DNA of 52,401 nt. It comes from a virus. Lineage: Duplodnaviria > Caudoviricetes. The DNA lies in the IMG/VR virus record IMGVR_UViG_3300044990_000705, positions 1 through 52,401 of that record; one strand, written 5' to 3'. The notes under the pieces were generated by a model. The model worked only from the letters and a program-made list of their open reading frames with translations. It had not been told where the DNA came from and searched no databases. Each line of letters starts with the position of its first letter. Positions within the stretch are counted from its first letter, which is position 1. Made by a program: the position numbers and the translations under genes. Shown here piece by piece: positions 253 through 51,061 of this stretch.

Positions 253-275
253 CTATGTTCAAAAAATAAACATAG
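253..275. repeat. 23-bp palindromic motif, copy 1
   Basis: ctatgttcaaaaaataaacatag. Confidence 0.9.
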
Positions 276-1509: not shown

Positions 1510-1537
1510 ATCATACACTGTTGGTGGCTATTGTCAA
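1510..1537 (-). promoter_or_regulatory. Putative sigma70-type promoter (leftward)
   Basis: TTGACA-16 nt-TATGAT on the minus strand. Confidence 0.55.
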
Positions 1538-1647
1538 GGCCCTTGCCCTGACCACTTTGTTTGTCGCTTTCGTTAAATACATAATACATGATCCCAGTGG
1601 TTTGTCAACTTTCACATTCCCATGGCTGGAGTGATTTGCCATGTGAA

Positions 1648-1670
1648 CTATGTTCAAAAAATGAACATAG
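1648..1670. repeat. 23-bp palindromic motif, copy 2
   Basis: ctatgttcaaaaaatgaacatag (perfect 9-bp arms). Confidence 0.9.
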
Positions 1671-2490: not shown

Positions 2491-3039
2491 ATGGCTACAC
2501 TAACAAAAGAACAATCTGAGCGTTACACTATGCCATATCGCAGTGACCAACGATTCGGTCCTGTGCTCAGCAAGAAGAATTGGCAAGTAGGCCAACTATG
2601 GGACTTGCATCATGAAGTGATTCGGATGTTGTTGCTGGGAATGAAGCAAACTGACATCGCAGCAAAACTCAACATCACCGATTGCCAAGTCTCGAAGATC
2701 AAAAACTCCCAAGTCGTCCAAGATCGCTTATCGCTGATGCGTGCATCTCGTGATGTTCAAACTATTGACATCTCAAGGGATATTCTGGAAGTTGCACCTC
2801 GTGCCCTAAAACTATTGAAAAATATCGTTGAAAATGAGGGAGAAGGTCGTCAAGCAACTATTGGATTGCGTAGCAAGGTGGCTGAGAGCTTGCTCGACAG
2901 GGCGGGATTTGGGGCAGTGAAGAAATTGCAAAGTGAAAATGTGCATACCTTTTATGATGCTAATGAAATTGAGCGCATAAAGCAAAGGGCTATGCTCGCC
3001 AGCGGCGAGGTGGAAGAGGCCATAGTGGTGAATGGCTAA
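2491..3039 (+). CDS. HTH protein, probable terminase small subunit
   Basis: HTH-like GMKQTDIAAKLNITDCQVSKI plus AESLLDRAG motif typical of TerS-like proteins; first gene of the structural arm. Confidence 0.55.
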   Translation: MATLTKEQSERYTMPYRSDQRFGPVLSKKNWQVGQLWDLHHEVIRMLLLGMKQTDIAAKLNITDCQVSKIKNSQVVQDRLSLMRASRDVQTIDISRDILEVAPRALKLLKNIVENEGEGRQATIGLRSKVAESLLDRAGFGAVKKLQSENVHTFYDANEIERIKQRAMLASGEVEEAIVVNG

Positions 3040-3041
3040 CG

Positions 3042-3064
3042 CTATGTTCAAAAATTAAACAAAG
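3042..3064. repeat. 23-bp palindromic motif, copy 3
   Basis: ctatgttcaaaaattaaacaaag, between a stop codon and an RBS. Confidence 0.9.
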
Positions 3065-3078
3065 AGGACAATGCTGCT

Positions 3079-6000
3079 ATGTACATTCACAAACCGTGGA
3101 AGACATTCTTCGCGCCAACTGTCATAAAGTATGAAGCACCAACTGCTAATGACTACCAATATGACGTACCTACTGTCTGGCTGAACAAAACTACTGATAT
3201 TTGCTATCTGCTGGTGGACAACTCTATGGGTGCTGCCATCTGGGTTAGCCGAGAGAATAGCAATGGTGGCGACTCTGTGTGGGTGTTGTATGGCCAGAAT
3301 GCGTGTTATCTTGCTGGAAATGTGGGCATTGCTACTCCTGACCCAAGCCAAACTCTTACAATCGCTGGAACTATTGGTGGTGGTGAGCATGGAACAGAGT
3401 TCACTGTAGATATGAATGGTAGTGTGATTTGCGGAGACGTGAATAATCAGATCATATCTAATGCTGCGTCTTTCACTGGAACTGTGAATGCAGATGATGG
3501 CTTCTTGGTTGGAAATGACGCTACAAGTGGCAATGTGTTGAAAGCTGATGGAATTTCATTCAAATCTAGTGCTCTCACCAAAAGTGATGTGGGCCTTGAT
3601 AATGTTGACAATGTAAGTGATGCTAACAAAATCATATCTAACCTAACTGCAAGTGCTCTTGCTGCAAAGGCTGACTTGGTAAGTGGCAAAGTTCCAGCAA
3701 CTCAACTCCCTGCTAGTGCATTAATGGAACTTGGAAATGACTCTACCAATGCCTATTGGGGTGATAAGGGCAAAATTGCTTATGACCACTCCCTTGTTGT
3801 AGTTGGAAACCCTCATGCTGTTACAAAGAGTGATGTTGGTCTGGCTAATGTTGACAACACCAGCGACACCGCCAAACCAATCTCCAGTGCTGTCTCCCTA
3901 GCCTTGACTACCAAAGCTGATCTCGTGACTGGCAAAGTCCCTGCTGAGCAACTCCCTCCAATGTCTTATTCTGTTGTTGACTATGCAAATCGTGCTGCTT
4001 TCCCTGATCCGGGCGATAGCAATACCTACTATGTAGCGCTTGACACTATGTATGTCTACTTGTGGGGTGGAGATGGAGTTGGCTATGTGATGATAACTGG
4101 ATCGCTTGTGATAGCTGATAACGCTGTGACAATGGTTAAGATCCAAGATATCGACACAAACACTGTGATTGGGCGGATAGATAGTGGAATTGGAAACCCA
4201 AAGGCGCTGAGTGCCAGTGAACTGCGGGCTATTATTGGCACTGTTGGTATAGCAACTGACGCTATCTGGGATGCCGCTGGGGATCTTGTGGTTGGCTCTG
4301 GTGCTGATGCGGCAGTGCGGCTTGCAAAGGGTTCAAGTGGCCAAGTGCTGACTGCTGGTGCTACCACGTTATCTTGGCAAACACCAGCAACTGGTGGTGG
4401 AACTATAACTGATGTAACCGGCACTAGCCCTGTGGTCTCTAGTGGTGGTACAACTCCTGCCATATCTATGCCTGCTGCAACTGCAAGTGCTCCTGGCCAT
4501 GCAACTGCGGCGCAGATAACTAAACTTGATGGGATTGAGCCAGGTGCTAACGACTACACCCATCCAGGTGGTGATGGCTATCTGCATGTCCCCGCAACTG
4601 CTGGTGCTTCAAATGGCCAAGCTCTGCTTGTTGACACACCTGGAGCTGCTGCTGTGTGGGGAACTATCTCATCAAGTGGTGCTGTGAGTGTTGCTGACAC
4701 CTCATCTATCGATCTGACTCTGAGTGGAAGCCAAATATCTGGCGTAGTGCTGCCTGCTGGAGTGAATCATGACAGTTTGTCAAATTATAGTGCTAACAAA
4801 CATATAGATCATTCGGCTGTAAGTGTGATTGCCGGAACGGGGATGAGTGGAGGTGGAACACTAACTGAATCTCGCACACTGAATTGCACTGTAGTTGGCT
4901 ATTCTGCTGCAACTGCTAGAAGTGATATGATTGCTGCGAGTATTGCTGATGGTGACACTACCCACGCCCCTGATGGCAATTCTGTGTTTGACGCTCTTGC
5001 GCTTAAAGCTAACCTCGTCAGCCCAACTTTCACTGGCACAGTGTTGTGCGCTGCTATAACCGCAAGTGGCATTCTGACTGCTGCGACGATAAAAACTGGC
5101 TCGCTGAACACTACTTATGTCCCCTACTACGATTCCACTAATGGCCTGTCAAATAGCATAATCCGCAGTGTAGCTTCTGTAATTGGCATAGGCATATCTC
5201 CAACTAAAGCATTTTTGCATCTTGCGGCTGCAACTGCGGCTAATGCCAACTTGAAGTTTGAGCCTGCTGGTGTTGAACCAACTAGTGCTGATGTTGGTAG
5301 TTTGTGGTTCTATGTCGATGGTGGAGGGATTCCATATCTGAAGTTCAAAAAAACTAGCTCTGTCACAGTTGACCTACTTGCCATGTCTGGCACATCACAG
5401 TGGACAACAAGTGGAAATAATATCTGGTTTGGCACTGCTACTGTGGGAAGTGTTGGAGTTGGGATTTCTGCTCCTAGTGCACGGTTGCATGTGTATGGAA
5501 CTAATGCTTCTGGGCTTGCGAGCGGTCGGTTTGAGAATACATCAACTACTGGTTATTGCGAGGTTAGAGTAAAATCTGGAACAAATGATCTATATTTTGG
5601 TGCTTGTAGTCCTGGATACACAGGTACTGGATTTGAATCTGGATCGTGGATATGGAATACTGGGGCAGGAAAACTATCTTTTGGTACAAACAATACTGAG
5701 TGCTTTAACATAAATAGCAACAACGTGCTATATGTGTCAACTCCAACTAATCGTTACCACCAGATCTATAAAACACAATCTAGTGTGGATCTGACTGTGC
5801 CAACAACTAATACTTGCTTCTCTCCTGCGCTTACAGGTGGAACTGGCCAAGGAGTTGGCTGGATGCTGCCAATTGTCCCGCAGGTGTTTTGTGGAACTAT
5901 TTGCAATGTAGTGCCTACAATAAGTGGGTCGATGTGGTATGCTACAATTCACTCTAAGGTGCTAAACACTGGAGGAATTGGACTTCAGACAACTTCAGGT

Positions 6001-6813
6001 AGTTATAACTCTGCAATAACCAGTCACATTGGCTTGGTGCATGAAGTTGAGAACAAAGGTGGAAAAAGTGGTGATTGTAGTGCAGTTTTCCATCAAGTAT
6101 ATATGCACGGCCATCTTGCAAATGAAAGTAGCGAATCAACTTCAATTTATTATAGCCATGTCATAGGTGGTTTTCCTGGAGTTGAGGGAAATGATGGGCT
6201 TGGAGCATACTACACCTCTGTCTTTGAGGGCCATCAGTACTATATGAATGGTGGTAGTAACACTCGGGGGTGCAAAGGTTGGTGGCACTTGCTGTATATC
6301 AGCAATAATTTCGCTACTGGTGGATTATCTGCTGGAAATTGGAAATCCTATGATTATATAAGTGCAATACATGGTGTAGATGTTGCTACTTTTGGTGCAG
6401 CAGCTATGAGTGGATATGATATTATGTATGCCGATACTTTTTTAAGGGCTGCTGGAAAATGGCATACTGTCTTTGGTGGTGGAGTAGCTAGTTATGAAGA
6501 TGCAACTACTTTTCAGTTAACCTTAGATGTATGTGGAATAGATCTTTGTACTAATGTATTATATTCTTATGCAACTGTACCAGCCCTTAAAATATCAGAT
6601 GCCACATATATAGACTTAAATGGAAAATTTCCTTATACAGGTACCTGTAAAATTGGATCTGTTTCAAATGGAATTCATATGACTATAATGGGTACAAGTG
6701 GTACAGCAGTAACTGCATTTGGTATAAATAGTTCTGCCACATATCTACGAATAAATAATGTTTTGTATGGATTATCTGTTGATACTAATGGATTTGTAAA
6801 AGCTACTTCATAA
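3079..6813 (+). CDS. Long tail fibre protein
   Basis: 1244 aa, G/S/T/A-rich; duplicated TKSDVGLxNVDN..KADLVxGKVP repeats; VGIGxxxP..LHV fibre repeats. Confidence 0.8.
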   Translation: MYIHKPWKTFFAPTVIKYEAPTANDYQYDVPTVWLNKTTDICYLLVDNSMGAAIWVSRENSNGGDSVWVLYGQNACYLAGNVGIATPDPSQTLTIAGTIGGGEHGTEFTVDMNGSVICGDVNNQIISNAASFTGTVNADDGFLVGNDATSGNVLKADGISFKSSALTKSDVGLDNVDNVSDANKIISNLTASALAAKADLVSGKVPATQLPASALMELGNDSTNAYWGDKGKIAYDHSLVVVGNPHAVTKSDVGLANVDNTSDTAKPISSAVSLALTTKADLVTGKVPAEQLPPMSYSVVDYANRAAFPDPGDSNTYYVALDTMYVYLWGGDGVGYVMITGSLVIADNAVTMVKIQDIDTNTVIGRIDSGIGNPKALSASELRAIIGTVGIATDAIWDAAGDLVVGSGADAAVRLAKGSSGQVLTAGATTLSWQTPATGGGTITDVTGTSPVVSSGGTTPAISMPAATASAPGHATAAQITKLDGIEPGANDYTHPGGDGYLHVPATAGASNGQALLVDTPGAAAVWGTISSSGAVSVADTSSIDLTLSGSQISGVVLPAGVNHDSLSNYSANKHIDHSAVSVIAGTGMSGGGTLTESRTLNCTVVGYSAATARSDMIAASIADGDTTHAPDGNSVFDALALKANLVSPTFTGTVLCAAITASGILTAATIKTGSLNTTYVPYYDSTNGLSNSIIRSVASVIGIGISPTKAFLHLAAATAANANLKFEPAGVEPTSADVGSLWFYVDGGGIPYLKFKKTSSVTVDLLAMSGTSQWTTSGNNIWFGTATVGSVGVGISAPSARLHVYGTNASGLASGRFENTSTTGYCEVRVKSGTNDLYFGACSPGYTGTGFESGSWIWNTGAGKLSFGTNNTECFNINSNNVLYVSTPTNRYHQIYKTQSSVDLTVPTTNTCFSPALTGGTGQGVGWMLPIVPQVFCGTICNVVPTISGSMWYATIHSKVLNTGGIGLQTTSGSYNSAITSHIGLVHEVENKGGKSGDCSAVFHQVYMHGHLANESSESTSIYYSHVIGGFPGVEGNDGLGAYYTSVFEGHQYYMNGGSNTRGCKGWWHLLYISNNFATGGLSAGNWKSYDYISAIHGVDVATFGAAAMSGYDIMYADTFLRAAGKWHTVFGGGVASYEDATTFQLTLDVCGIDLCTNVLYSYATVPALKISDATYIDLNGKFPYTGTCKIGSVSNGIHMTIMGTSGTAVTAFGINSSATYLRINNVLYGLSVDTNGFVKATS

Positions 6814-7139: not shown

Positions 7140-7162
7140 CTATGTTCAAAAATTAAACAAAG
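7140..7162. repeat. 23-bp palindromic motif, copy 4
   Basis: ctatgttcaaaaattaaacaaag. Confidence 0.9.
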
Positions 7163-11185: not shown

Positions 11186-11208
11186 CTATGTTCAAAAATT
11201 AAACATAG
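11186..11208. repeat. 23-bp palindromic motif, copy 5
   Basis: ctatgttcaaaaattaaacatag. Confidence 0.9.
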
Positions 11209-13394: not shown

Positions 13395-13417
13395 CTATGT
13401 TTAAAAATTGAACATAG
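13395..13417. repeat. 23-bp palindromic motif, copy 6
   Basis: ctatgtttaaaaattgaacatag (flanks extend to taa...tta). Confidence 0.9.
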
Positions 13418-17225: not shown

Positions 17226-17456
17226 ATGATAGCTATGAACATCCTTGCGGTGATTACTGCACTTCCAGGCTTAGTGAAATTGATAAGAGAATTGATGCAG
17301 CAATTGCAGGAGCAGCTAGGCCCAGGAACGGGAGTGGAGAAGAAGAAAGTGGTTCTTGATGTGGTAGCTGGAGTTGTTGGAGATGAGGGAGTTTGGGAAA
17401 GTGTAAAAGGGATTTTCTCTTGGATCATTGATTGTATTGCTATGTTCAAAAAATGA
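17226..17456 (+). CDS. Holin-like small protein
   Basis: AAGGAG RBS; hydrophobic N-terminus and GxEKK motif. Confidence 0.5.
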   Translation: MIAMNILAVITALPGLVKLIRELMQQLQEQLGPGTGVEKKKVVLDVVAGVVGDEGVWESVKGIFSWIIDCIAMFKK

Positions 17457-17462
17457 ACAAAG
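17440..17462. repeat. 23-bp palindromic motif, copy 7
   Basis: ctatgttcaaaaaatgaacaaag, overlapping the last codons of ORF 17226. Confidence 0.9.
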
Positions 17463-17468
17463 GGTGTT

Positions 17469-18116
17469 ATGGATACCTACGACCAACAAAGAACTCAAAG
17501 ATCAATTTTAAATATTTTAACTTCTCTTGGCCTTGAAGATATTAACATATTGTTGGAATTGTTTTCAAACTTTATATCTTTAAGTCAAACAACAATGGCT
17601 AATGGATCATTTCTGGGGCGCAAGGTAAGTGGAATTGGGCCAGTTGATGAAGTTACATTAGATGAAGTTAAAACATTTCTGGGTATAGAGCTTGACCCAA
17701 AGATAAAATTCACAGCTGAAGGTGGTTTGGCAGTTAAGTTGATAAATAAAACTGGATTGCCATCTATCAAAGGCTATTGTGTAACACCTGAGAGTGCTGA
17801 TAGTGGTGTAGTTCTTGTGCCTATTGGAGAGCCAGATTGTATTGGAGTATTTTATGAAAGTGGAATTGCTGATGGATCTGAAGCTTGGGTTGTTGTAAGT
17901 GGAATTGCGGAAGTGTATTTTTGGAATGCTGCTACTCGTGGCTATCTTGCAAGAACTGGACTGGCTTCTGATACAGGCGAAATATCTGGCCAAGCATTAT
18001 CTGAAGCTATTCCTACAACTCCATTTGCAGTTGATAAACATTTCTGTGAAATAGGTCATATTCTTGAAACAAAAATAGCCAGTGGTTTAGCTAAAACGAT
18101 ATTGCATTTTAACTAA
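17469..18116 (+). CDS. Hypothetical structural protein
   Basis: 215 aa; FLGRK..GIGP fibre-like motif; beta-rich C-terminus. Confidence 0.55.
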   Translation: MDTYDQQRTQRSILNILTSLGLEDINILLELFSNFISLSQTTMANGSFLGRKVSGIGPVDEVTLDEVKTFLGIELDPKIKFTAEGGLAVKLINKTGLPSIKGYCVTPESADSGVVLVPIGEPDCIGVFYESGIADGSEAWVVVSGIAEVYFWNAATRGYLARTGLASDTGEISGQALSEAIPTTPFAVDKHFCEIGHILETKIASGLAKTILHFN

Positions 18117-21817: not shown

Positions 21818-21840
21818 CTATGTTTAAAAAATGAACAAAG
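21818..21840. repeat. 23-bp palindromic motif, copy 8
   Basis: ctatgtttaaaaaatgaacaaag, directly after TAA and merging into AAAGGAG. Confidence 0.9.
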
Positions 21841-24951: not shown

Positions 24952-24992
24952 GTGACAGATGCTGTGGTGGTCTGTCACTATGTTCAATTTTT
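24952..24992 (+). terminator. Putative intrinsic terminator after the capsid gene
   Basis: gtgacaga/tctgtcac 8-bp stem followed by T-rich sequence. Confidence 0.5.
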
Positions 24993-25000
24993 AAACAGAG
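24978..25000. repeat. 23-bp palindromic motif, copy 9
   Basis: ctatgttcaatttttaaacagag. Confidence 0.88.
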
Positions 25001-28987: not shown

Positions 28988-29010
28988 CTTTGTTTAAAAA
29001 ATGAACATAG
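28988..29010. repeat. 23-bp palindromic motif, copy 10
   Basis: ctttgtttaaaaaatgaacatag. Confidence 0.9.
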
Positions 29011-30332: not shown

Positions 30333-30344
30333 TGGAGATTGATT

Positions 30345-33300
30345 ATGGCACTTGGAGCAAAGATTCAATTAGATGGTAGCAAGAATTCTCTTGGACCTAA
30401 AATCCAACTTGATGAGGTTGGAAGTGGAGCTCCAAGTTTCATAGATCAAGTTGCTAATGCAGGTTTAGGTGCAGTGGATGCAATTGGGAGTTTGGCAGGC
30501 CAAGCAGTTTCATTCCCAGCAAGCTTGGCGTATGAAGCAGCAGGGCATTTAACTGGGCAAGGGAAAGATGTTGCAAAGCAGTGGGGACAGATACCAGGTT
30601 ATTACACACAGCCAGGGATGATTACTGGTGCGGTTAGATCACTTGCGGGGTTGCCAAGTATTCCACAAGAACAGACTATGGCGGCGAAGTATAGTGAGCC
30701 AATAGCTAAGGCATTTGAGACACTTATTCCATCACAGCAGATTGAAGAAGGTCTTGGTAGGGCAAAGGAACTTGGGGCACCAGAGAAGGTGACTGATGCA
30801 CTTGCTTTTGGTGCTTCGAAGTTCATTGAGTTGATGGCATTTGGAGGTTATCATAAGATAGCAACAGGGGCTATAGGAAAGATCAAAGGGAAGTTAAAGG
30901 AGTATCAGAAAGCACCTACCCCACAAGCACAAGCACAGGCCCAAGGTGATTTGCTTGGAGAGTTGGAAGGAGTTCTTGGAAAACTCAATGAGAAAGGTGT
31001 GGACATTACGGAGTTGAAAGCAACAATTCCAACAATAGCAGACACTCCCATAGCAAGTGAGATGGCAGCCAGAAATGCCCAGACAGCACAAAGGACTAAT
31101 GCTGAGAGCCAGCAGTTTATGCAATCAAGATCAGCACTACAGCAGGCATTAGAGGCTAATGTTCCAAAACCAGAGCCACCAGCCATCATAGAGCCAAAGC
31201 AAACTGGGTTGACCCCGCAAGAGACATTGGAAGCAGCTAAAGTTAATAAGAACCTGACAGGTGATCCACAGATAGTTTCACCTGATGAGTTCAAGACTTT
31301 AGTAGATCAGCAAGCCAAAGTTCCAACACAAGAGAATGTCAGCGCTAAGCTTGAAGCTATGAGAGCAGAAGCAAAAGCGAGGATAGCAGCTGAGCAGAAC
31401 AGGCCGGCAGCAGGTGCAGAAATACCAGTTAGATTGCAACAAGAGGCAGAGAGGACAAATCAGATAGCAAGGGAAGCAGTTAGCAGGCAGAGATCACTTC
31501 AGCAGATGTTGCAGAAAGGAGTGCCGAAAGAAGAGGTTAAGGCTTATCAGCCATCGCCAGCGAAGGTTGAGCCGATAGTTGAGACTGTAAAACAGGCTGA
31601 GGTAAAAGCTGAGCCGCAAAAACCAGTGGTTACTGAAGAACTTTCACCAGCTGTTAGTGAGCAATTGCTAGTTGAGCCAGCTAAAGTTGAGCCACTTAAA
31701 CCAGAACCTGTTGTTGAGAGCAAAGTGGTGAATGAGCCAACCTCTGTTCAAAAAATGAACATAGTTGAAGAGCCAAAACTAGCAAAGAAACCACGTGAAG
31801 TTGTTTTAATTGAAAGAGAAAAACCAGTTTACCATAAATCATCTAATCTTGAATCACTTGAAAATGGATTTCAGAAAAGAGATCTTGGAATTTCATTCTC
31901 CAAAACGCCGGAAACAACATATAGTTCACCAAGAAAACAAGAACCAATTGGGACTATTGGCCAAGTTGAGGCAACATTAAAAGGAAAAGGGCTTAACTAT
32001 CTGAGAAAATCTCATAAGGATTTGATTGAGAATCTTTATGAAGAAGCAACAAAGCAAGATGGACCTTATGATCCATATGTTATTAGCAAACTTCGTGAAA
32101 TGGGAGTTGACTTTGTAGAAAATTTTAATGGCTATGGCAAATCAAGAGAGGGAGAAGTTCATGTTTTAAATCCAGATGCTGTTAAGATAAATAAAACTAC
32201 AAAATTATCTGACTCACTTGATCCAAAAGAAAGAGCAAGGGTTAGTAGGTCTGGACTTTCACAAGATAGTCTTATAACAAAGTTTGAAACAAACAAAGAA
32301 GCAAAGCAGTCTTATGAACTCAACAAGAGACAATTTGCTACAGTAGATGAAGCTAAGACATTCTTTGATACCATACCACAAGAGATTAGGAATGAGTTCT
32401 CACCAGAGATTTTAAAGGTTGGAAAGAAGTATAGGATCGGCACAAAGATCTTGACTGAGATGCCAGAAGAGGAGATAGTAGCTAAGATCAAAGACACAGT
32501 TAAAGAGCTTGAAGATATGGAGCAAGGTAGAGATGTTCCCATGCCGAAGATGGCTGAGCAAATGACAGGTGATCAGGTTTACAAGGCCGTGACAGATATG
32601 ATCCCAGACATCCAAGCAGCACTACAGAATGGCACTAATGTGGAAGTGGTGCACCAGAAACTGGCAAACCTTGGAGATCATGCAGCTACATCACTGGAGT
32701 TTGAGTTGCTTGATAAGATTGAAAGTATGTTGCCGCAGTTGTGGAAGAAGAAAATGGAGATAGATAGTGTGCTTGAAAAGCAATTCTCAGATGCACATAA
32801 AGCAGACATGAAGAGTGCCAAGACAACTGCGGGTGGGAAGGAGATAAAGGTAGATGCAAGTGGATATAATGGAGTTAGTGTTAAGGATATTAAGAACACA
32901 GCAACAGCCATCAACAAGATTGTGGGAAATATAGGAGCAGTTGGTACTGAGGTAGGTGGTGGGAAGCAGAGTAGGTTGAGCTTGTTGAATCAGGCTGAGA
33001 TAGATTCCATTAGAAGGGTTAAAGAAGCAGCACAGAAAGCAGGGAAAGAAGTAGGAGAGTTCTTACTTGAGCTTGGTATGACAAGAGATAACGCACAGAA
33101 GATAGTGGAGACCATTGGTGAGATGGGAGAGGAGAAGGTAGGTAGGAAGGAATTGAGATCTACACCAGAGCAAGTTCAGAGAGTTACTGATGGACTTGAA
33201 AGTGAGATGGATAAGATCAGGAATCCCATTAAGAAGTATTATCAAGAGATGTATGATAAGAGGCAGATGGTTGATACTTATCGACCAGGAGATGGGAATT

Positions 33301-35225
33301 ATCAGAGACAGTTGCCAGGCACTCCACAGACACCACCAGAGTTAAGTGGCAAAGGAATGGGACATACAGCACTATCGCCGCACAACGTTCTTAATGTTTT
33401 CAAAAGTGGTGATAACCCAGTGACTGATGTTATTAAGTCTCATAATGCTTTCACACGGAATGTTAGCAATGGAAAGAAGTGGATAAAGGATTTGCTGAAA
33501 GATGTGCCAGAGATGTCAGCAGAGGCGCAGAAGAAGTTTGAAAATATCTATGATCAGTATAGTGATAGATACAAGCTGAGGGCACAGATAGGCAGGTCAG
33601 TTGCTTCACTTGAGAAGAGGATAGCGAAGAAGAGTGGAAGTCAGAAGGCAGCACTTGAGAAAGAGTTAAAGATAGAGCAAGCAAAGTTTGGTGAAGCTAA
33701 TAAGATGGCAGCTGATATGGCTGCGGATTTTGACACTTTGATAAACTCACCAGAAAGCCCAGCCCTCACTGAGCCAACAGTTAGAATTATGCTTGCTGCA
33801 GATGGCACACTGCCAAGCCATATTAAGTTGAGTCCACTTGAAGCAGATGTAGCAGCGAAGATTAGAACATACTTTGATTCCACAGCAGAGGATATGAAAG
33901 CACTTGGAATGCCAGTGAAAGAGGGTTATGTGCACAGAGTGTGGAAGCCACTTGTTAATAAAGATGTTTTGGAGAGCTCGTTCTTCCAGAGATCTATGAG
34001 AACTCCTTCGATGTTGCGGCAGATGAGCCAGTTGCCAGATGGTAGAACTTGGTTTCCGGATGCTAAAGCCACGTTGGAAAGTTATGTGCCAATTATAGAG
34101 CGAGAGCTTGCTTATAATCCATTCTTGGATAGGTGGAGTAGCTTCATAGATAAGACTGAGAGTCCAAAATTAAGGGCTTATATGCAACAGTGGGTGAATG
34201 ATAACCTTTATCGTAAGCCTGATAGTTTCATGGGCAATGTGAATGCAGCGGCTACAGCGTTTGAGTTTGCTCGTTTGATAGGCCTGTCATTGCCAGTTGC
34301 ATTTAAGCATTTGATGAAAGTGTGGGGCACGACAAGCCAGAACTCGCTTGATGTTAATGCACTTGCGCTTGCAGATACAATGAAAGCACTTGGACAGTTT
34401 ACGAAAGAGAAGTTTGGAGGGATTCCGAAAGATAAAGAGCTTGAAGTGTTTCGATCGTATGTGACTACCAGAGATATTGTTAAATCACTTGATGAGTCAC
34501 CTATAAGTGGTATGCTGGATATGGTTAAGGGTATTCTTGGATCACCTACAGCAACGATAGAAGCTTTTGATAATGGAATCTCAGTGTTCTCAGCGATTCG
34601 TAAAGGGGCGAAGAAAGGAATAGATAGCCAGACCACTGAGAGGGCGATGATTAGAACTATTCTTGATGTCAACTTCAGGTCTGGTTGGGATCAGCCACTT
34701 TGGCTCAAAACAGATGCAGCCAGGTGGATGTTGATGTTCCAGAGCACGCCATATAAGTCAGCAGAATTGAAGTATCAGATGATAAAGCGAGCACTTAATA
34801 ATGAAAGAGATGCTTTTGGTACACACTATGGACAACAGTTGTTGAAATATATGCTAACTATTGGAGCAGTAGAGGCTATTGCCAGGGCTAATGATACATC
34901 AGTTTTAGAGCAAGTTATGCACATGCCATTCTTCAGCCATTGGTTAGCAGGGTCAAAGGAGCAGCCAGGTGTGAAGTTGCACATACCCAAAACTGCGACG
35001 AGTCCACTTGTGGGGTTGGCTTATCATATGAGTTCAAATAGGAAGGGCGCACCAGCAGGATTCAGGGAGCAGTTTGGACTTGATAGAAATTTCCTGCCAA
35101 CAAGGAAAAGTAGTCCGAGTTTGAATAGATATATGAATGCAGCAGATGGGAATAAGAGGAAGTTCAACACTATAACGCAGATGATTCTGGGATTGCAGCC
35201 ACTTGAAGGTGAGAGTGGAAGGTGA
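30345..35225 (+). CDS. Large internal virion / polyvalent ejection protein with an ART-like domain
   Basis: About 1626 aa, helical; last structural gene; VYHKS..GISFS..EVHVLNPDAVK segment. Confidence 0.7.
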   Translation: MALGAKIQLDGSKNSLGPKIQLDEVGSGAPSFIDQVANAGLGAVDAIGSLAGQAVSFPASLAYEAAGHLTGQGKDVAKQWGQIPGYYTQPGMITGAVRSLAGLPSIPQEQTMAAKYSEPIAKAFETLIPSQQIEEGLGRAKELGAPEKVTDALAFGASKFIELMAFGGYHKIATGAIGKIKGKLKEYQKAPTPQAQAQAQGDLLGELEGVLGKLNEKGVDITELKATIPTIADTPIASEMAARNAQTAQRTNAESQQFMQSRSALQQALEANVPKPEPPAIIEPKQTGLTPQETLEAAKVNKNLTGDPQIVSPDEFKTLVDQQAKVPTQENVSAKLEAMRAEAKARIAAEQNRPAAGAEIPVRLQQEAERTNQIAREAVSRQRSLQQMLQKGVPKEEVKAYQPSPAKVEPIVETVKQAEVKAEPQKPVVTEELSPAVSEQLLVEPAKVEPLKPEPVVESKVVNEPTSVQKMNIVEEPKLAKKPREVVLIEREKPVYHKSSNLESLENGFQKRDLGISFSKTPETTYSSPRKQEPIGTIGQVEATLKGKGLNYLRKSHKDLIENLYEEATKQDGPYDPYVISKLREMGVDFVENFNGYGKSREGEVHVLNPDAVKINKTTKLSDSLDPKERARVSRSGLSQDSLITKFETNKEAKQSYELNKRQFATVDEAKTFFDTIPQEIRNEFSPEILKVGKKYRIGTKILTEMPEEEIVAKIKDTVKELEDMEQGRDVPMPKMAEQMTGDQVYKAVTDMIPDIQAALQNGTNVEVVHQKLANLGDHAATSLEFELLDKIESMLPQLWKKKMEIDSVLEKQFSDAHKADMKSAKTTAGGKEIKVDASGYNGVSVKDIKNTATAINKIVGNIGAVGTEVGGGKQSRLSLLNQAEIDSIRRVKEAAQKAGKEVGEFLLELGMTRDNAQKIVETIGEMGEEKVGRKELRSTPEQVQRVTDGLESEMDKIRNPIKKYYQEMYDKRQMVDTYRPGDGNYQRQLPGTPQTPPELSGKGMGHTALSPHNVLNVFKSGDNPVTDVIKSHNAFTRNVSNGKKWIKDLLKDVPEMSAEAQKKFENIYDQYSDRYKLRAQIGRSVASLEKRIAKKSGSQKAALEKELKIEQAKFGEANKMAADMAADFDTLINSPESPALTEPTVRIMLAADGTLPSHIKLSPLEADVAAKIRTYFDSTAEDMKALGMPVKEGYVHRVWKPLVNKDVLESSFFQRSMRTPSMLRQMSQLPDGRTWFPDAKATLESYVPIIERELAYNPFLDRWSSFIDKTESPKLRAYMQQWVNDNLYRKPDSFMGNVNAAATAFEFARLIGLSLPVAFKHLMKVWGTTSQNSLDVNALALADTMKALGQFTKEKFGGIPKDKELEVFRSYVTTRDIVKSLDESPISGMLDMVKGILGSPTATIEAFDNGISVFSAIRKGAKKGIDSQTTERAMIRTILDVNFRSGWDQPLWLKTDAARWMLMFQSTPYKSAELKYQMIKRALNNERDAFGTHYGQQLLKYMLTIGAVEAIARANDTSVLEQVMHMPFFSHWLAGSKEQPGVKLHIPKTATSPLVGLAYHMSSNRKGAPAGFREQFGLDRNFLPTRKSSPSLNRYMNAADGNKRKFNTITQMILGLQPLEGESGR
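31742..31764. repeat. 23-bp palindromic motif, copy 11 (intragenic)
   Basis: ctctgttcaaaaaatgaacatag within the large CDS. Confidence 0.88.
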
Positions 35226-35235
35226 TAAGGTGAAG

Positions 35236-35276
35236 TGAACACAGTTAGTTTGTGATGATAACTGTGTTCATTTTTT
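35236..35276 (+). terminator. Intrinsic terminator at the convergence of the two arms
   Basis: 12-bp stem tgaacacagtta/taactgtgttca followed by T6. Confidence 0.7.
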
Positions 35277-35284
35277 AAACATAG
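35262..35284. repeat. 23-bp palindromic motif, copy 12
   Basis: ctgtgttcattttttaaacatag. Confidence 0.85.
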
Positions 35285-35287
35285 TTG

Positions 35288-35485
35288 TTATTCAAAATCA
35301 AAACTTTTGTCAAGATCTTTTAATATAAAACTATCAACCTTGAGGTCAAAATTTCCAGCTTTTGTGAATAGAGTTATTGTATGGTCTTCTGTTTCCGCGT
35401 ATATTCCATTATCTTTATAGCCACAGATAGCACTACTACGAAAATAATAAAGCTTGTTTTCTTTATCTATAAACTCAAGGATCAT
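35288..35485 (-). CDS. Hypothetical protein
   Basis: 65 aa; ATGA overlap; GGAGG RBS. Confidence 0.6.
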   Translation of the reverse strand: MILEFIDKENKLYYFRSSAICGYKDNGIYAETEDHTITLFTKAGNFDLKVDSFILKDLDKSFDFE

Positions 35486-36423
35486 TTATCTACCTCCCAC
35501 TTTATGTTTAGTTTTTCACTTGCCCATTTTAATGCTTCCAAATGTTCCCTATTTTCTGCTCCAATATCTTTTAAAATCTGTCGTGCTTCTTTTTTATTCA
35601 TCCCTTTTGCTAATAGATCATAAGCCATAACTCTAAATTTACCTAATCTTGTACCATCTTCCCTGAAAGTTTCTGGTGGCTTTTGTTTTATTTCCTCTGC
35701 CACAAAACCAGTCTCAATTATTCCACGCTCAGTTATTCTAAATTTAAAAGGAGGAGACTTTGCCGCAAGATTCAATTTGGCTTGTGTTATTATTCTCCTG
35801 TCACTTCCTTCTCCATCCTCATCAAGAAGTAAAACCGACCTGGCAAGATCCGAGACAGCAGCACTACCAGCGATAGAATCAAGTGAAAGTGATGATTCCA
35901 TATTTTGTTTCTTGTTCACATGCGCCAGTAATAAAATTCCAGTTTTATAAACTGATGCCGTTTCTTGTAGTTGTTCAAAATATGTAGCAGCTCTATTACG
36001 TTCCTGTAACTCAATTAATCGTGCGATTACAGTTAGAGAATCTAAGATAATTAAATCCGGTTTTACATCTTTTATTAACAGTTGTATTTTGTACACATCT
36101 GTCGGACTACCAGTGTCAATCATTCCACTTATTGGTTCCCGATTTCCAACAAGTTTTAGCTTCTTCCAGTTTGGCAAATCCCATTCATAGCAACGTTTCC
36201 TTATCAATGATCCACTGCGCTCAGCATCAAAGATTAGAATTGTCTTTCCTTCTCCAGCGAGTTTATCTGCGAGCCATAAAGAGAACCCACTTTTTCCAAC
36301 TCCGCCACGAGAAGCGAGTATAGTGATGTAGTTTTTTGGTACTAACGGTTCCCACAGCCACTCAATATCACCAATCTTTTCCATAAGATCCTCAATGTCA
36401 AACACTTCATAGTTTTTACTCAT
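35482..36423 (-). CDS. RecA-fold ATPase/helicase (AAA_25/RepA-like)
   Basis: EWLWEPLVP, ASRGGVGKS, LIILDSL, LLAHVNK, GSAA..ARSV; start may be 36423 or 36441. Confidence 0.8.
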   Translation of the reverse strand: MSKNYEVFDIEDLMEKIGDIEWLWEPLVPKNYITILASRGGVGKSGFSLWLADKLAGEGKTILIFDAERSGSLIRKRCYEWDLPNWKKLKLVGNREPISGMIDTGSPTDVYKIQLLIKDVKPDLIILDSLTVIARLIELQERNRAATYFEQLQETASVYKTGILLLAHVNKKQNMESSLSLDSIAGSAAVSDLARSVLLLDEDGEGSDRRIITQAKLNLAAKSPPFKFRITERGIIETGFVAEEIKQKPPETFREDGTRLGKFRVMAYDLLAKGMNKKEARQILKDIGAENREHLEALKWASEKLNIKWEVDK

Positions 36424-36494
36424 AGTAATTGATTCCCACATTTGGTTGTTGGTGTATTATTTCCCGTATTTTTTTATTAATACGTTTTATTATT

Positions 36495-36549: not shown

Positions 36550-36572
36550 CTATGTTCATTTTTTAAACAGAG
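36550..36572. repeat. 23-bp palindromic motif, copy 13
   Basis: ctatgttcattttttaaacagag, abutting the stop codon of ORF 36573. Confidence 0.88.
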
Positions 36573-42057: not shown

Positions 42058-42080
42058 CTTTGTTTAAAAATTGAACATAG
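42058..42080. repeat. 23-bp palindromic motif, copy 14
   Basis: ctttgtttaaaaattgaacatag. Confidence 0.9.
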
Positions 42081-42227: not shown

Positions 42228-42331
42228 CTTAATTTCCTTTCGTCAAAGAAGTTTTTTATTATCACTAATAGTTCTTCAAATAATATTCCAAGTATAAGAC
42301 CAGCCACAAAAAACACAGTTTTAACAAGCAT
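42224..42331 (-). CDS. 35-aa membrane peptide (not in ORF track)
   Basis: MLVKTVFFVAGLILGILFEELLVIIKNFFDERKLR; GGAGG RBS; overlaps both neighbours. Confidence 0.5.
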   Translation of the reverse strand: MLVKTVFFVAGLILGILFEELLVIIKNFFDERKLR

Positions 42332-43652
42332 CTTGGCCTCCTCCAAAGTATTTTTCACACTTCAATACATATGAGTTACGATATTCTTCAGTCAGGTCAT
42401 AGCCAATAGGCATCATTTTGTTCAAAGCAGCAGCGATTAGAGTATTACCAGACCCAGCAAAAGGGACGAGAACCTTGGAGCCCTCAAATGCGAAAGTGGT
42501 TATTACTTCTGAAATCATTTCAAGTGGTCGTTCAGTAGGGTGCATTTTATTGCCTGGTGAAACAGGAGGGAATTGGAATATGTTAGAGCGGCCTTCTTTA
42601 GCCAGCACAGGTGAGCCTTTTGAAGCATAAAAGAACATTTCATAAGAGTTAGCAAGAATGCGACTTGGTTGCATAGTCTGGCCACCAGGCTTAGCCCAGA
42701 TGCAAGGTATGCGGCGGAGAGTAAAGCCAGCAGCAACCAGCCACTCATAGATATCATTGAACCAAGGCTCAGGGCCAAACCAGCAGAGGAGCCAGCTATT
42801 GTCAGCCATAACACGATAGCATTCGATAAATAGCTCACGCATCAGCTGTTCATACAAAGGAGCTGGGATTTCATTATAAGTTTCATTGCCAAAATTAGTA
42901 GCCATGCCAGATTTTTGGCTCTTCAGGTTGATGGCATAGGGTGGGTCGATTTCAACAAGGTTAAAGTGGCCATTTGGTAGTTGCTTTATGCCATCGAGAC
43001 AATTGCAGATTTGGTAAGAGGAGCAGATTTTATTCAGAAAGAGATTTTTGCTGCCCATCGCCGCTTCAGCACGCTTTGCAAGCTCGGCTCGGATGTAAGT
43101 TTCTTCAATCTTTCCCTTCAACTTCATTGCATCACTTTTAGTTTTGCACTTATTCCATTCAAGTTGAGGGAACTGGGCTACAGTTTCAGCCAATTTGATA
43201 TCTTGCGACAGGCTTGCAGGGCTAACACCAAGCACAGAAGCAATGTCACGCATAGATACTCCGCTAGCATCAGGGGCAGTGGAAGTCTTTTCACCATGGA
43301 TAGCCTTTTGGATTTCAAGTAGGTCCCGTTTAGCTTGACATTCTTCAAGGAAAGTAAAATCCTTGCGTTTGATGTTCTCCTCGATTTCAATAGACCTGAG
43401 TTCGAGCTCAGTTAGCTCTTTGTCATACACTCTGCAAGGGATCTCGGTATGGCCAAGGAAGCCACAAGCAGTGTAACGGCGTCCACCAGCCACGAGTTTG
43501 TACTTACCATCAGGCATAGTTGTGACAGTTATGGGATTTATGAGTTCTTTTTGCTTAATTGAGAGCGCCAAGTCCTCTATGTCACCATAATCTTCACGCT
43601 TTCGCTCGCCAAAAACTATATTCTTAATTGGAATATTTAAAAGTTGCATCAC
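42321..43652 (-). CDS. ParB/Srx + HTH + beta-class N4C/N6A DNA methyltransferase fusion
   Basis: LALSIK..LINPI.V..LVAGGRRYTA and EIEENIKRKD (ParB); SMRDIASVLGVSPASLSQ (HTH); DPPY, HPTERP, PFAGSG (MTase). Confidence 0.9.
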   Translation of the reverse strand: MMQLLNIPIKNIVFGERKREDYGDIEDLALSIKQKELINPITVTTMPDGKYKLVAGGRRYTACGFLGHTEIPCRVYDKELTELELRSIEIEENIKRKDFTFLEECQAKRDLLEIQKAIHGEKTSTAPDASGVSMRDIASVLGVSPASLSQDIKLAETVAQFPQLEWNKCKTKSDAMKLKGKIEETYIRAELAKRAEAAMGSKNLFLNKICSSYQICNCLDGIKQLPNGHFNLVEIDPPYAINLKSQKSGMATNFGNETYNEIPAPLYEQLMRELFIECYRVMADNSWLLCWFGPEPWFNDIYEWLVAAGFTLRRIPCIWAKPGGQTMQPSRILANSYEMFFYASKGSPVLAKEGRSNIFQFPPVSPGNKMHPTERPLEMISEVITTFAFEGSKVLVPFAGSGNTLIAAALNKMMPIGYDLTEEYRNSYVLKCEKYFGGGQDAC

Positions 43653-43875: not shown

Positions 43876-44130
43876 CTAATTCCCATGAGGTTCACGATTT
43901 TCACGTGGTTTTAGGTTGAGTTTGCAGATTTCATTAAGTGATAGCACACGAGTGGTGAAAGCTCCAATTACTTCTCCAGGCCCAAAGCGGTCACACATAG
44001 CTATCAGGTCATCTACGATAAGGCCAAAGACCATTTTCTTCATCCCATGCTGAATCATTATGCGATTTAGTTTGTTATGCTGGTCTTCAGTTAGGTCAAT
44101 TGAAAGTCGAGGTGAATATTCAGCTGCCAT
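43876..44130 (-). CDS. Hypothetical protein, possibly ribbon-helix-helix DNA binding
   Basis: PRLSIDLTEDQHNKL N-terminus; ATG 44130 with GGAG. Confidence 0.5.
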   Translation of the reverse strand: MAAEYSPRLSIDLTEDQHNKLNRIMIQHGMKKMVFGLIVDDLIAMCDRFGPGEVIGAFTTRVLSLNEICKLNLKPRENREPHGN

Positions 44131-44185
44131 TGCATTGTCTCCAAATGGTGATAGGTGAGATGGCCACGATAGTAACCATCCCACC

Positions 44186-44208
44186 CTTTGTTTAAAAATT
44201 GAACATAG
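44186..44208. repeat. 23-bp palindromic motif, copy 15
   Basis: ctttgtttaaaaattgaacatag, abutting a stop codon. Confidence 0.9.
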
Positions 44209-44601
44209 TTACATGAACTTAGTGATAGTATTCACTGGTGCGCCATCTTGATCTTTGCCTACACCCAGGATAGCCCAGCCTTCAGATCCCTTGATTGCCT
44301 CAAGATCAATCTCTGCCGTAGTGTCGATGTCGAAAGCCTTGAAGAAGTTAATCAAGTCGAGCTTGGACTTGTTAAGGTTCTTCGGCTCCATGCCAGCATG
44401 TGGGAGTTCAAGATACTTGCCAAATTCTTTGAAGTATGGGTCATCAGGATTTTCAAAGAAGGGCATAATGAAGCGATTTCCCTTCTTCGAAGTCCCCTCA
44501 ATTATGTTGATGATGCGAAGTTTTGCCTCTGATCCAGCAGGCAGGACAGTAGGTTCAAATGTGTCAGACAGGTTGATAGAGGTAAGGTCGAGAATAGTCA
44601 T
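44209..44601 (-). CDS. Putative ssDNA-binding protein (DUF669-like)
   Basis: LPAG..L.I....SKKGN OB-like pattern; directly after the Sak4-like ATPase. Confidence 0.55.
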   Translation of the reverse strand: MTILDLTSINLSDTFEPTVLPAGSEAKLRIINIIEGTSKKGNRFIMPFFENPDDPYFKEFGKYLELPHAGMEPKNLNKSKLDLINFFKAFDIDTTAEIDLEAIKGSEGWAILGVGKDQDGAPVNTITKFM

Positions 44602-44626
44602 TTTTAGGTCCTTTCATTTAGATGAT

Positions 44627-45796: not shown

Positions 45797-45819
45797 CTTT
45801 GTTTAAAAATTGAACATAG
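45797..45819. repeat. 23-bp palindromic motif, copy 16
   Basis: ctttgtttaaaaattgaacatag, abutting a stop codon. Confidence 0.9.
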
Positions 45820-47509: not shown

Positions 47510-47532
47510 CTATGTTTAATTTTTGAACATAG
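47510..47532. repeat. 23-bp palindromic motif, copy 17
   Basis: ctatgtttaatttttgaacatag. Confidence 0.9.
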
Positions 47533-48390: not shown

Positions 48391-48432
48391 TTTAGATCTC
48401 CCTCATTTTTGTACTTTTGTCCATAATGAAAA

Positions 48433-48488
48433 CCCACTTAGAGTTGTTTCAATAAGCACATTTGGTTATTGTTTGCTCTCTAAGTGGG
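48433..48488 (-). terminator. Long intergenic hairpin (terminator or processing site)
   Basis: cccacttagag/ctctaagtggg 11-bp stem plus inner caataa/ttattg; T4 follows on the minus strand. Confidence 0.5.
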
Positions 48489-48506
48489 CTTAGTTGGTGA
48501 TAGCGA

Positions 48507-48839
48507 TTACATACTTGCTTGCAATGCTTCCAGATAGGCCAGGCGTTCTTCCTGAGTCATTTTGCCAAACTTTGCTTTGGCCTGAGCGAGGACATCAACC
48601 GCAGATCGCTGCAACTGGATACCAGGCTTCCAGATTTCAGCCAATTCCAGCACATTTCCGCCCTTTTCCAATCTTGTGCGCATCAGGGCCTGCAAGGAGA
48701 TTTTGGCACTTTGGACGAAGTTGCTGAAAACCACTTCTCCACCAAACTTGTTAATTGCATCATCCAGATTGTCGCCAAAGTCATACTGGATTGTCGCTTC
48801 GAGATCGCCCTTTTTAGCTGCTACGTCAATATTAGCCAT
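48507..48839 (-). CDS. Hypothetical protein
   Basis: MANIDVAAKK start with AAAGGA; has its own promoter and downstream hairpin. Confidence 0.7.
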   Translation of the reverse strand: MANIDVAAKKGDLEATIQYDFGDNLDDAINKFGGEVVFSNFVQSAKISLQALMRTRLEKGGNVLELAEIWKPGIQLQRSAVDVLAQAKAKFGKMTQEERLAYLEALQASM

Positions 48840-48913
48840 TTTTTCAGATCCTTTCAATTTACAGATTGTTGCCGTTATTGGCATTTGATGGGTAATTCCC
48901 ATTGATGAAACAC

Positions 48914-48942
48914 ACATTAACATCATTTAATGGCCATGTCAA
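48914..48942 (-). promoter_or_regulatory. Putative sigma70-type promoter
   Basis: TTGACA-17 nt-TAATGT (same hexamers as the promoter at 2426). Confidence 0.65.
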
Positions 48943-49068
48943 CAATTATTTTCATTAATGATTTCAATGGTTTATGACCAAAAAATCACATATTTGTTTG
49001 GCATATATATTGCATACATCCTATGGCCACCAACTAAACATAGCAATTCGAGATAGGGTGATGAACTG

Positions 49069-49091
49069 CTATGTTTAATTTTTGAACATAG
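49069..49091. repeat. 23-bp palindromic motif, copy 18
   Basis: ctatgtttaatttttgaacatag. Confidence 0.9.
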
Positions 49092-50498: not shown

Positions 50499-50521
50499 CT
50501 TTGTTTAATTATTGAACATAG
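50499..50521. repeat. 23-bp palindromic motif, copy 19
   Basis: ctttgtttaattattgaacatag. Confidence 0.88.
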
Positions 50522-51038: not shown

Positions 51039-51061
51039 CTTTGTTTAAAAAATGAACAGAG
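51039..51061. repeat. 23-bp palindromic motif, copy 20
   Basis: ctttgtttaaaaaatgaacagag. Confidence 0.88.

Follow-up and report, generated by a model that had tools for sequence, protein, structure and literature searches.

A phage ParB–methyltransferase fusion and the dispersed palindromes that it probably binds

What does a ParB-type protein do in a phage in which no ParA is recognized, and where on the DNA does it act? The question is raised by IMG/VR record IMGVR_UViG_3300044990_000705, a Caudoviricetes genome of 52,401 bp (the whole of this stretch was analyzed; hereafter called “the window”, or G000 where genomes are compared). One of its genes encodes a fusion of a ParB-CTPase fold, a ParB-type helix-turn-helix (HTH), and a beta-class DNA methyltransferase, and 20 copies of a palindrome are scattered along the genome. 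An earlier reading of the window from its letters (the sequence-only reading) had proposed that the fusion and the palindromes form a candidate new system. We put the probability at about 0.6 that the palindromes are parS-like sites of the fusion, which would bring the methylase onto the phage DNA; as further steps, we infer a nucleoside triphosphate (NTP)-dependent clamp, spreading, and methylation in cis. The support for this reading is wholly comparative, and binding, NTP use, and methylation are predicted.

Palindromes in the window

The pattern TGTT-N9-AACA matches the window 22 times, as compared to 1.84 expected matches, and none of 100 shuffled sequences reaches this number (the largest shuffle count is 6). 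Twenty of the 22 matches belong to one family, a 23-bp palindrome with the consensus cTATGTTYAAWWWWTTRAACATAg, a 17-bp core, and an odd centre; this is the number of dispersed palindromes that the sequence-only reading had counted. The other two matches, 24700-24716 and 41772-41788, were rejected as chance occurrences, as they lie inside coding sequence and are without the inner and flanking consensus of the family. The family members are:

253..275 (core 256-272), no strand: palindrome copy 1
1648..1670 (core 1651-1667), no strand: palindrome copy 2, ~43 bp upstream of near-consensus sigma-70-like promoters on the minus strand
3042..3064, no strand: palindrome copy 3, between open reading frame (ORF) 2491..3039 and the tail-fibre-like ORF 3079..6813
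7140..7162, no strand: palindrome copy 4
11186..11208, no strand: palindrome copy 5
13395..13417, no strand: palindrome copy 6
17440..17462, no strand: palindrome copy 7, upstream of ORF 17469..18116, which itself precedes the large terminase gene
21818..21840, no strand: palindrome copy 8
24978..25000, no strand: palindrome copy 9, between the major head and adaptor genes; found at the same place in G001, G002, G015, and G019
28988..29010, no strand: palindrome copy 10
31742..31764, no strand: palindrome copy 11, in frame inside the 1628-residue ORF 30339..35225
35262..35284, no strand: palindrome copy 12, at the convergent junction of the plus- and minus-strand gene blocks
36550..36572, no strand: palindrome copy 13
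42058..42080, no strand: palindrome copy 14, ~240 bp downstream of the stop codon of the fusion gene
44186..44208, no strand: palindrome copy 15
45797..45819, no strand: palindrome copy 16
47510..47532, no strand: palindrome copy 17
49069..49091, no strand: palindrome copy 18
50499..50521, no strand: palindrome copy 19
51039..51061, no strand: palindrome copy 20

All copies except that at 31745 lie between ORFs, real or doubtful small ones, and most occupy short intergenic gaps, with a stop codon directly before them and the next start 3-37 nt further on. The distances between neighbouring copies range from 540 to 5508 bp, with a coefficient of variation (CV) of 0.50, and the copies are spaced more evenly than random ones would be (P ~0.001 with uniform placement as the null model, and 0.0001 with random gene junctions).

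Domain organization of the fusion protein

The fusion and its parts are placed as follows, with the basis of each assignment in brackets.

42321..43652, minus strand: ParB-CTPase-fold, HTH, and beta-class DNA methyltransferase fusion, 443 residues (ORF, Pfam, PHROGs, AlphaFold2, Foldseek)
43296..43652, minus strand: ParB N-terminal NTP-binding domain, residues 1-119 (phmmer against PDB; invariant columns)
43173..43262, minus strand: ParB-type HTH, residues 131-160 (DSSP of the model; co-variation of residues 144-147)
43017..43172, minus strand: helical connector, residues 161-212, with a long helix at 172-199 (AlphaFold2 model)
42345..43016, minus strand: beta-class N6A/N4C DNA methyltransferase domain, residues 213-436 (Pfam, Foldseek, invariant columns, dimer prediction)

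The ORF starts with GTG, and ATG is the very next codon. Both terminal domains that the sequence-only reading had named from their motifs score above the Pfam cut-offs: ParB_N covers residues 8-95 (E 1.3e-11; 44.8 bits, cut-off 26.3), and N6_N4_Mtase covers residues 231-426 (E 1.7e-20; 74.4 bits, cut-off 26.7). The motifs themselves stand in the translation as VAGGRRYTA (54-62), EEN (91-93), DPPY (236-239), and PFAGSG (397-402). In the N-terminal domain, box II is G56-G-R58-R59-Y-T-A62 and box III is E92-N93-I-K-R96. With phmmer, this domain matches Noc and ParB chains in the PDB with E values of 1e-13 (Noc) to 1e-8, and GGRRYTA and ENIKRK of the fusion align with GERRWRA and ENLQRE of Noc.

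The HTH, which the same reading had also called, is borne out by structure prediction, although no HTH family is significant in Pfam (best HTH_38, E 0.041). The AlphaFold2 model, calculated from 63 homologues, has a predicted local distance difference test score (pLDDT) of 90.2 and folds residues 134-141 and 145-160 into two helices separated by a turn. Foldseek aligns 157-176 columns of the model to Noc and ParB chains, including their DNA-binding domain. The recognition helix begins with G142-V-S144-P145-A146-S147.

In the methyltransferase domain, motif IV (D236-P-P-Y239) precedes motif I (F398-A-G-S-G402), the order of the beta permutation. Foldseek matches N4CMT, CcrM, M.RsrI, M.BceJIV, MboIIA, and PvuII with E values of 6e-15 to 1e-10. 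A DPPY motif favours adenine. Among the 63 homologues, the residues G56, R58, R59, A62, E89, E92, N93, and R96 of the N-terminal domain are invariant, as are D236, P238, and Y239 of motif IV and G400, S401, and G402 of motif I, and P237 is conserved in at least 90%. This invariance of the NTP-pocket and catalytic residues suggests that both activities matter, and that of DPPY and FxGSG points to methylation being under selection.

The fusion lacks the C-terminal dimerization domain of ParB, and Pfam, the model, and Foldseek all place the methyltransferase (213-436) there instead. A homodimer is predicted with a score of 0.79 (best control 0.00), and its interface lies wholly in the methylase domain (residues 294-360 and 386). 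Of 30 proteins whose solved structures are pairs of identical chains, 20 reach the mark set for this score, as does 1 of 23 proteins solved as a lone chain; the dimer runs share at least 33% of their contacts, with a partner pLDDT of at least 75. The prediction may reflect recall or likeness, because similar beta-class methylase complexes are already solved.

ParA was found neither among 50 ORFs searched with PHROGs nor among 48 ORFs searched with Pfam, in agreement with the sequence-only reading; sub-threshold CbiA/ParA matches are confined to the helicase-like ORF 35482..36441 (Pfam).

Co-variation of the recognition helix with the palindrome

Does the fusion recognize the palindromes? If it does, changes in its HTH should accompany changes in the site, a comparison that the sequence-only reading had named as a check. 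We scored every column of the fusion against each motif position by shuffle-corrected mutual information, because normalized mutual information favoured low-entropy motif positions. Rows were kept when the motif had an odd centre and an information content of at least 33 and the fusion ORF was longer than 350 residues, which gave 79 rows with 76 distinct fusion sequences; L137 was dropped for its even centre and L164 for its low information. Among 427 columns, the top-scoring ones for motif positions -7, -6, -5, -4, and -3 are residues 145, 145, 146, 145, and 147, respectively. Residues 145-147 form the first turn of the recognition helix, and the signal was already present with 42 rows. For the outer motif positions, the top columns are spread over the N-terminal domain and the HTH and track a deep two-clade split, so these positions carry no information.

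The pairing at -6 is simple. His145 occurs with G in nine rows, with T in one, and with an ambiguous base in one, and Arg145 occurs with G in eight rows and with T in one. Gln145 is paired with A in all four of its rows, while Lys, Pro, Asp, Thr, Asn, Val, Ala, Cys, or Ile at this position is paired with T in 49 of 49 scored rows, three more being ambiguous. In addition, Asp145 accompanies A at -7 (5/5), and at residue 146, Lys accompanies G at -5 (3/3) and Glu accompanies C (2/2). Six independent pairs differ at -6 on a tree that was calculated with FastTree and leaves out columns 126-166; His or Arg changes in the same direction in 5.5 of them on average and in the opposite direction in none (median p 0.031). 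The excess mutual information of residue 145 with -6 is 0.72, as compared to peaks of 0.31-0.48 in seven other proteins of the same loci, one of them the product of ORF 43876..44184.

The putatively equivalent position determines specificity in ParB and Noc. There, G170, K171, and S172 contact the DNA, and experiments established that Arg at residue 173 hydrogen bonds with guanine 1 of parS, while Gln bonds with adenine 1 of the Noc-binding site (NBS) (Jalal et al. 2020, PMC7383237). In the fusion, residue 145 follows G142-x-S144, and many relatives read G-K-S-x. The base paired with residue 145 lies 6-7 bp from the dyad, and a count along the parS sequence puts guanine 1 at 6.5 bp from its dyad. 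We infer that residue 145 is the equivalent of ParB R173. The co-variation at residue 145, together with the shared position and code, suggests that the fusion probably binds the palindromes, with its HTH reading them in the manner of ParB on parS. The link between protein and motif, which the sequence-only reading had offered as a hypothesis, thus gains support from 76 genomes or loci, from the independent pairs, and from the specificity position of ParB/Noc.

Could the palindromes instead be unrelated to the fusion? They might be RNA hairpins with a role in 3′-end formation, processing, or stability, or sites of another protein, such as the 102-residue product of ORF 43876..44184, and the co-variation would then reflect shared phylogeny. 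Each copy, read as RNA, can form a 9-bp stem with a 5-nt loop (from the sequence), and copies stand right after stop codons, including those of both converging genes in G002. The core pair 5/13, however, is C/G in 3, C/A in 7, T/G in 10, and T/A in 0 of the window copies, so most copies hold a mismatch or wobble rather than a compensated pair. The stem lacks a following T-run, and terminator-like sites show no enrichment (11 as compared to 13.2 expected, and 19 as compared to 13.3), and we therefore rejected the intrinsic-terminator reading. As for another binder, the sequence-only reading had named the ribbon-helix-helix-like protein at 43876. Its homologues occur in 51 of 70 loci, but it co-varies less than the fusion (best column 0.48 excess mutual information, as compared to 0.72), and its high columns are scattered (52, 91, 59, 79, and 101). 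In the fusion, by contrast, the top columns cluster in four adjacent residues of the recognition helix with the chemically sensible code of ParB/Noc, which phylogeny alone does not predict. We consider it very improbable that palindromes and fusion are unrelated. The HTH protein at 2491, another candidate, was set aside: its homologues occur in 6 of 14 fetched genomes, too few for co-variation, and the homologue in a Desulfofustis phage is annotated as a small terminase.

Distribution of the fusion and the palindromes among relatives

The fusion belongs to the core genes of a large group of phages. At E <= 1e-10 it is matched by 1577 clusters (90% identity), which lie on contigs as long as ~51 kb, and relatives are encoded by at least 509 IMG/VR stretches. 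Of the 120 best listed clusters, 119 show both Pfam domains, the exception being P0089 (351 residues) with the methylase domain only. Among relative records gathered via the fusion, the polymerase, and the major head protein, 17 of 25 hold a fusion homologue, as do all 10 of those that are at least 90% complete (the count leaves out L013). Of the 75 ORFs of the window, only three, namely the fusion, the primase, and the polymerase, had a match in every one of the 14 relatives fetched for comparison.

Do the relatives carry palindromes as well? Among named phages, Desulfofustis phage LS06-2018-MD01 is the closest; its fusion is 42% identical, and its palindrome, gCTATGTCCCAAnTTGGGACATAGc, occurs in 6 strict copies, or 9 with a looser pattern. 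The palindromes of G006 are like those of the window, G017 has CTATGTAAACCSGGTTTACATAG, and G015, G019, and G003 have others. G012 holds 7-8 copies of a TGATCAA variant, and hence is not a case of a fusion without a motif, as it first appeared. This variant, CTnTGATCAAwwwTTGATCAnAG (loci L050-L052), places a GATC in each arm, and its copies are more degenerate than those of the window.

In a de novo palindrome search around fusion homologues, 34 of 53 loci (>=9 kb) and 38 of 55 loci were positive, a co-occurrence of fusion and palindromes that the sequence-only reading had also proposed to examine; of nine shuffled loci, eight gave none and one gave a weak AT-rich palindrome. A blank locus does not mean absence, as L100, a 21-kb piece of G012, came out blank. 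The common build is a 23-bp odd-centred palindrome, CTnTG-variable-N-variable-CAnAG (AGnT...AnCT in one clade), in which the outer bases are conserved and the inner part varies across phages; L086 and L087, for example, have TGG sites. No gene was found whose presence or absence tracks the motif. Two loci, L032 and L033, have the motif and no fusion match; their records are 55% and 49% complete and hold the structural arm, and are thus uninformative about a motif without the fusion.

The placement of the copies is also shared. The giant virion gene contains in-frame copies in G000, G001, G002 (two), G017, and G019, the giant ORFs of the relatives being 1714-2292 residues long. Copies at convergent junctions lie at 35265 in G000, 18655 and 18694 in G002, 18141 in G015, and 29231 in G003. 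Spacing is even in G001, W01, and G019, as in the window. The proposal that site spacing is matched to a spreading distance thus agrees with these four genomes and fails in G017, where the spacing is uneven (CV 1.08); in G006 evenness is only marginal.

Do the palindromes serve gene expression? A global regulator like KorB or BisD would bind them mainly to control the transcription of flanking genes, by repression, as a road-block, or at long range, and the methylase would be secondary. The 19 copies between ORFs, many of them 3-37 nt before a start and directly before an AAGGAG-like ribosome-binding site, fit such a role, as does copy 1651, ~43 bp upstream of two near-consensus sigma-70-like promoters. 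Several copies also keep conserved places relative to genes, before the terminase and adaptor genes. Moreover, two ParB-type CTP clamps, KorB of RK2 and BisD of ICEclc, exert regulation from sites that are dispersed or far away (PMC11790492, PMC12409273). The nearness to start codons, however, follows from packing alone, the gaps being so short, and the copies at convergent junctions and in frame inside giant genes (five genomes) are unexpected for operators. Sigma-70-like promoters are not enriched in the window (49 sites, as compared to 56.8 and 45.8 expected), and their positions do not match those of the copies, which also led us to reject the palindromes as promoters. The invariant DPPY and FxGSG motifs further argue against a secondary role for the methylase. 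We regard a mainly regulatory function as unlikely.

Proposed mechanism

We propose that the fusion uses the palindromes as parS-like sites in the following steps.

Site recognition: A dimer joined via the methylase domains would read the two half-sites with its ParB-type HTHs, and residue 145, directly after G-x-S, would read the base 6-7 bp from the dyad, as R173 or Q173 does in ParB/Noc. Binding would thereby put an adenine- or cytosine-N-methyltransferase on the phage DNA at many places of the genome.

Clamp closure: NTP binding may close the N-terminal domains into a clamp, which would leave the site and spread. The constant contact of the methylase domains and the NTP-gated contact of the N-terminal domains would supply the two interfaces that a ParB-type clamp needs. 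Which NTP is bound by a ParB-CTPase fold is not predictable from sequence or by AlphaFold3, according to the survey by Kaljevic et al. 2025 (PMC12704722).

Methylation: The spreading enzyme might methylate the phage genome in cis, favouring phage over host DNA. The many sites, their fairly even spacing in several genomes, and the copies inside the 4.9-kb gene fit a need for coverage of the whole chromosome.

Is spreading needed at all? In a simpler scheme, the HTH would be an extra target-recognition module, the ParB N-terminal domain would only act as a gate, and the enzyme would place ~20 marks per genome in or beside the palindromes, for replication, packaging, or the timing of expression. 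The co-variation of fusion and palindrome applies equally to this scheme, and the constant outer arms CTnTG/CAnAG beside variable inner bases could be a constant methylase target beside a variable address. In addition, a ParB homologue activates a phage thymine dioxygenase, and mutants of its conserved NTP residues are unaffected in that role (PMC13229309). On the other hand, the methylase has a region of its own between motifs IV and I (~292-396), like stand-alone beta-class enzymes with short targets; the even spacing and the copies in the 4.9-kb gene are more readily understood if it is coverage along the DNA that counts; and boxes II and III are invariant, as in true switches. Marks restricted to the sites seem quite improbable to us.

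Several observations weigh against the palindromes being parS-like sites of the fusion. In the co-variation, G015 (Arg with T), L146 (His with T), and L092 (His with an ambiguous base) are exceptions to the pairing, and the sign test (p ~0.03, six pairs, FastTree tree) is weak, because the pairing of His/Arg with G was chosen after the data had been seen. The other values of the fusion (0.41-0.49) fall within the top range of the control proteins (0.31-0.48), so that beyond residue 145 with -6 the only remarkable feature is that they cluster in residues 144-147. The recognition helices differ considerably among phages with the common arm TGTTCAA, so that the signal sits in only a few positions. 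The equivalence of residue 145 and R173 is drawn from the G-x-S motif, since the alignments that HMMER makes to ParB/Noc end at about residue 117: a phmmer query with residues 80-215 gave no residue-level alignment of the HTH to a solved ParB or Noc, and the family profile aligns to ~117 only. Among the relatives, no clear palindrome was found in five distant fusion-bearing genomes (G005, G009, G011, G020, and G024), and the spacing in G017 and G006 departs from the pattern of the window as described above. The position of nearly all window copies just before ribosome-binding sites also fits a role in gene expression. The dioxygenase case implies that ParB domains beside DNA-modifying enzymes need not be sliding clamps. 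Finally, N6N4-methylase fusions were among the 50 representatives of the survey by Kaljevic et al., and the accessible text of that paper lists none among its named binders, while 17 of the proteins purified there bound no NTP (PMC12704722).

Comparison with known systems

How does the pairing of fusion and palindrome relate to what is already described? As in ParB-parS and Noc-NBS, an N-terminal domain with boxes II and III is followed by a ParB-type HTH, the site is a palindrome with TGT...ACA outer bases, and the putative specificity residue stands directly after G-x-S, with Arg paired with G and Gln with A. Noc likewise acts from many dispersed sites (PMC8429893). In contrast to these systems, the fusion comes without ParA and with a methyltransferase in place of the ParB C-terminal dimerization domain; the phage site is odd-centred (17-bp core, 23 bp in total) rather than 16 bp long, and NTP use by the fusion is predicted from its motifs.

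KorB-OB of RK2 and BisD of ICEclc resemble the fusion as ParB-fold proteins of mobile elements that act on palindromic or distant sites and not mainly in partition. Plasmid RK2 has 12 OB sites. KorB weakly matches the family profile of the fusion (8qa8, E 8.7e-06), and the palindrome positions are partly compatible and partly incompatible with promoter control of the KorB type. In the descriptions available, KorB and BisD are transcription regulators with the partners KorA, TrbA, and BisC and without an enzyme domain, whereas the payload of the fusion is a DNA methyltransferase.

The architecture itself, PF02195 with PF01555, is in print: Kaljevic et al. list ParB-CTPase plus N6_N4_MTase fusions among the commonest phage-enriched ParB-fold architectures, enriched in phages and prophages, and suggest an anti-defence or phage-host role (PMC12704722). 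In the accessible text, no DNA site, mechanism, or NTP-binding result is given for them, in line with the earlier remark that such phage fusions are known and poorly characterized. Wolbachia prophage methylases also carry a ParB-like N-terminal domain (PMC3089641). “Candidate new system” is too strong for the protein, and is fair for the pairing of the protein with the sites; overall, the sequence-only reading is partly supported. In our view, the protein belongs to a known architecture, and what is new within ParB/parS-type systems is its pairing with address sites and a recognition code.

A second phage group shows dispersed palindromes of similar shape. Cluster O mycobacteriophages (Corndog) carry TGTTCGGNNNCCGAACA in over 30 copies, intergenic and inside genes, which were judged not to be promoter-linked (PMC4351075), an observation repeated in a later genome note (PMC6439249). 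Like the window phage, Corndog looks lytic and has a dispersed 17-bp odd-centred palindrome, with TGTTC...GAACA outer bases. We counted 10 copies of TGTTCGGNNNCCGAACA in the 14 kb around gp90 (L236; AY129335.1 48000-62000), and gp90 itself (6425-7933 of L236, minus strand) consists of ParB_N and an HTH. It differs from the fusion in having no methylase domain (Pfam), and is 25% identical to it over 158 residues. The published description predicts gp53, gp76, and gp90 to be DNA-binding and, in its accessible part, assigns the repeats to none of them (PMC4351075). After the apparent equivalent of G-x-S, gp90 has a serine, followed by a gap in the alignment; under the pairing described above, this fits the T at -6 of TGTTCGGNNNCCGAACA, as a single data point. 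Our full-text search, with subscription journals and supplements outside its reach, found no paper tying a ParB-methylase fusion or gp90 to dispersed palindromes.

The phage ParB-activated thymine dioxygenases (O'Toole et al. 2026, PMC13229309) provide another case of a phage ParB homologue with a post-replicative DNA-modifying enzyme. There, unlike in the fusion, the ParB homologue is a separate protein that is described as having no obvious DNA-binding domain, its NTP-residue mutants are active, and the enzyme is a dioxygenase, not a methyltransferase.

In its fullest form, our proposal is an NTP-gated clamp with an enzyme as cargo that loads at ~10-20 phage-specific address sites, slides, and methylates in cis, with an address code, made up of residue 145 and its neighbours and of bases -7 to -3, that diversifies fast among related phages; the same logic of an orphan ParB would explain the 17-bp repeats of Cluster O. 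We offer this extended version tentatively, as a possibility that we would sooner bet against than on. If loading and spreading are true, CTP-switch clamps extend from segregation and gene silencing to the delivery of a DNA-modifying enzyme, and a lytic phage could, by a clamp carrying its enzyme, mark its own DNA quickly and preferentially. A candidate site for each phage and a simple residue-to-base code make this widespread family amenable to bench tests. The natural matched pairs of protein and site are material on the evolution of DNA-binding specificity, and are also useful for orthogonal DNA-labelling or targeted-methylation tools.

The phage genome

The IMG/VR record is complete, with a 46-bp repeat at its two ends, and the phage looks like a lytic podovirus-like type. 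The plus-strand arm holds tail-fibre, terminase, SU10-like portal and adaptor, and major-head genes, and the minus-strand arm holds helicase-like, primase, DNA polymerase, MazG-like, ThyX, Sak4-like, exonuclease, and ligase genes (PHROGs, Pfam). Scans of the window ORFs with PHROGs and Pfam revealed no integrase and no phage RNA polymerase or sigma factor. No near-identical DNA was present in the phage collection. Many lake-water metagenome runs contain the same DNA as the window, and its source is freshwater.

Some neighbouring genes deserve mention. Closing the structural arm, the 1628-residue ORF at 30339-35225 (plus strand) is matched by neither Pfam nor PHROGs. A stand-alone response-regulator receiver domain (16076-16519, plus strand; Pfam Response_reg, E 1e-24) adjoins an endolysin-like gene and is unusual cargo in a lytic-looking phage. 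The 115-residue ORF at 15466-15813 (plus strand) matches the NrdD profile only at 517-562 of 562 (E 5.3e-07), and may encode a small “spare part” protein of the glycyl-radical kind; if so, the niche of the host might be poor in oxygen.

At 1510-1608 (minus strand), two tandem near-consensus sigma-70-like promoters, TTGACA-16-TATTAT and TTGACA-16-TATGAT (11/12 each), lie directly downstream of palindrome 1651 and face the small-ORF region. From this position, they are probably early promoters. Four metatranscriptome runs from one study gave low-depth contigs of parts of the window, with no starts or ends visible. Several of these contigs jump between palindrome copies, an assembly effect of the repeat, and the deepest ones (48398-48947 and 44186-44988) cover the 139-residue ORF 48507..48926 and ORF 44209..44601.

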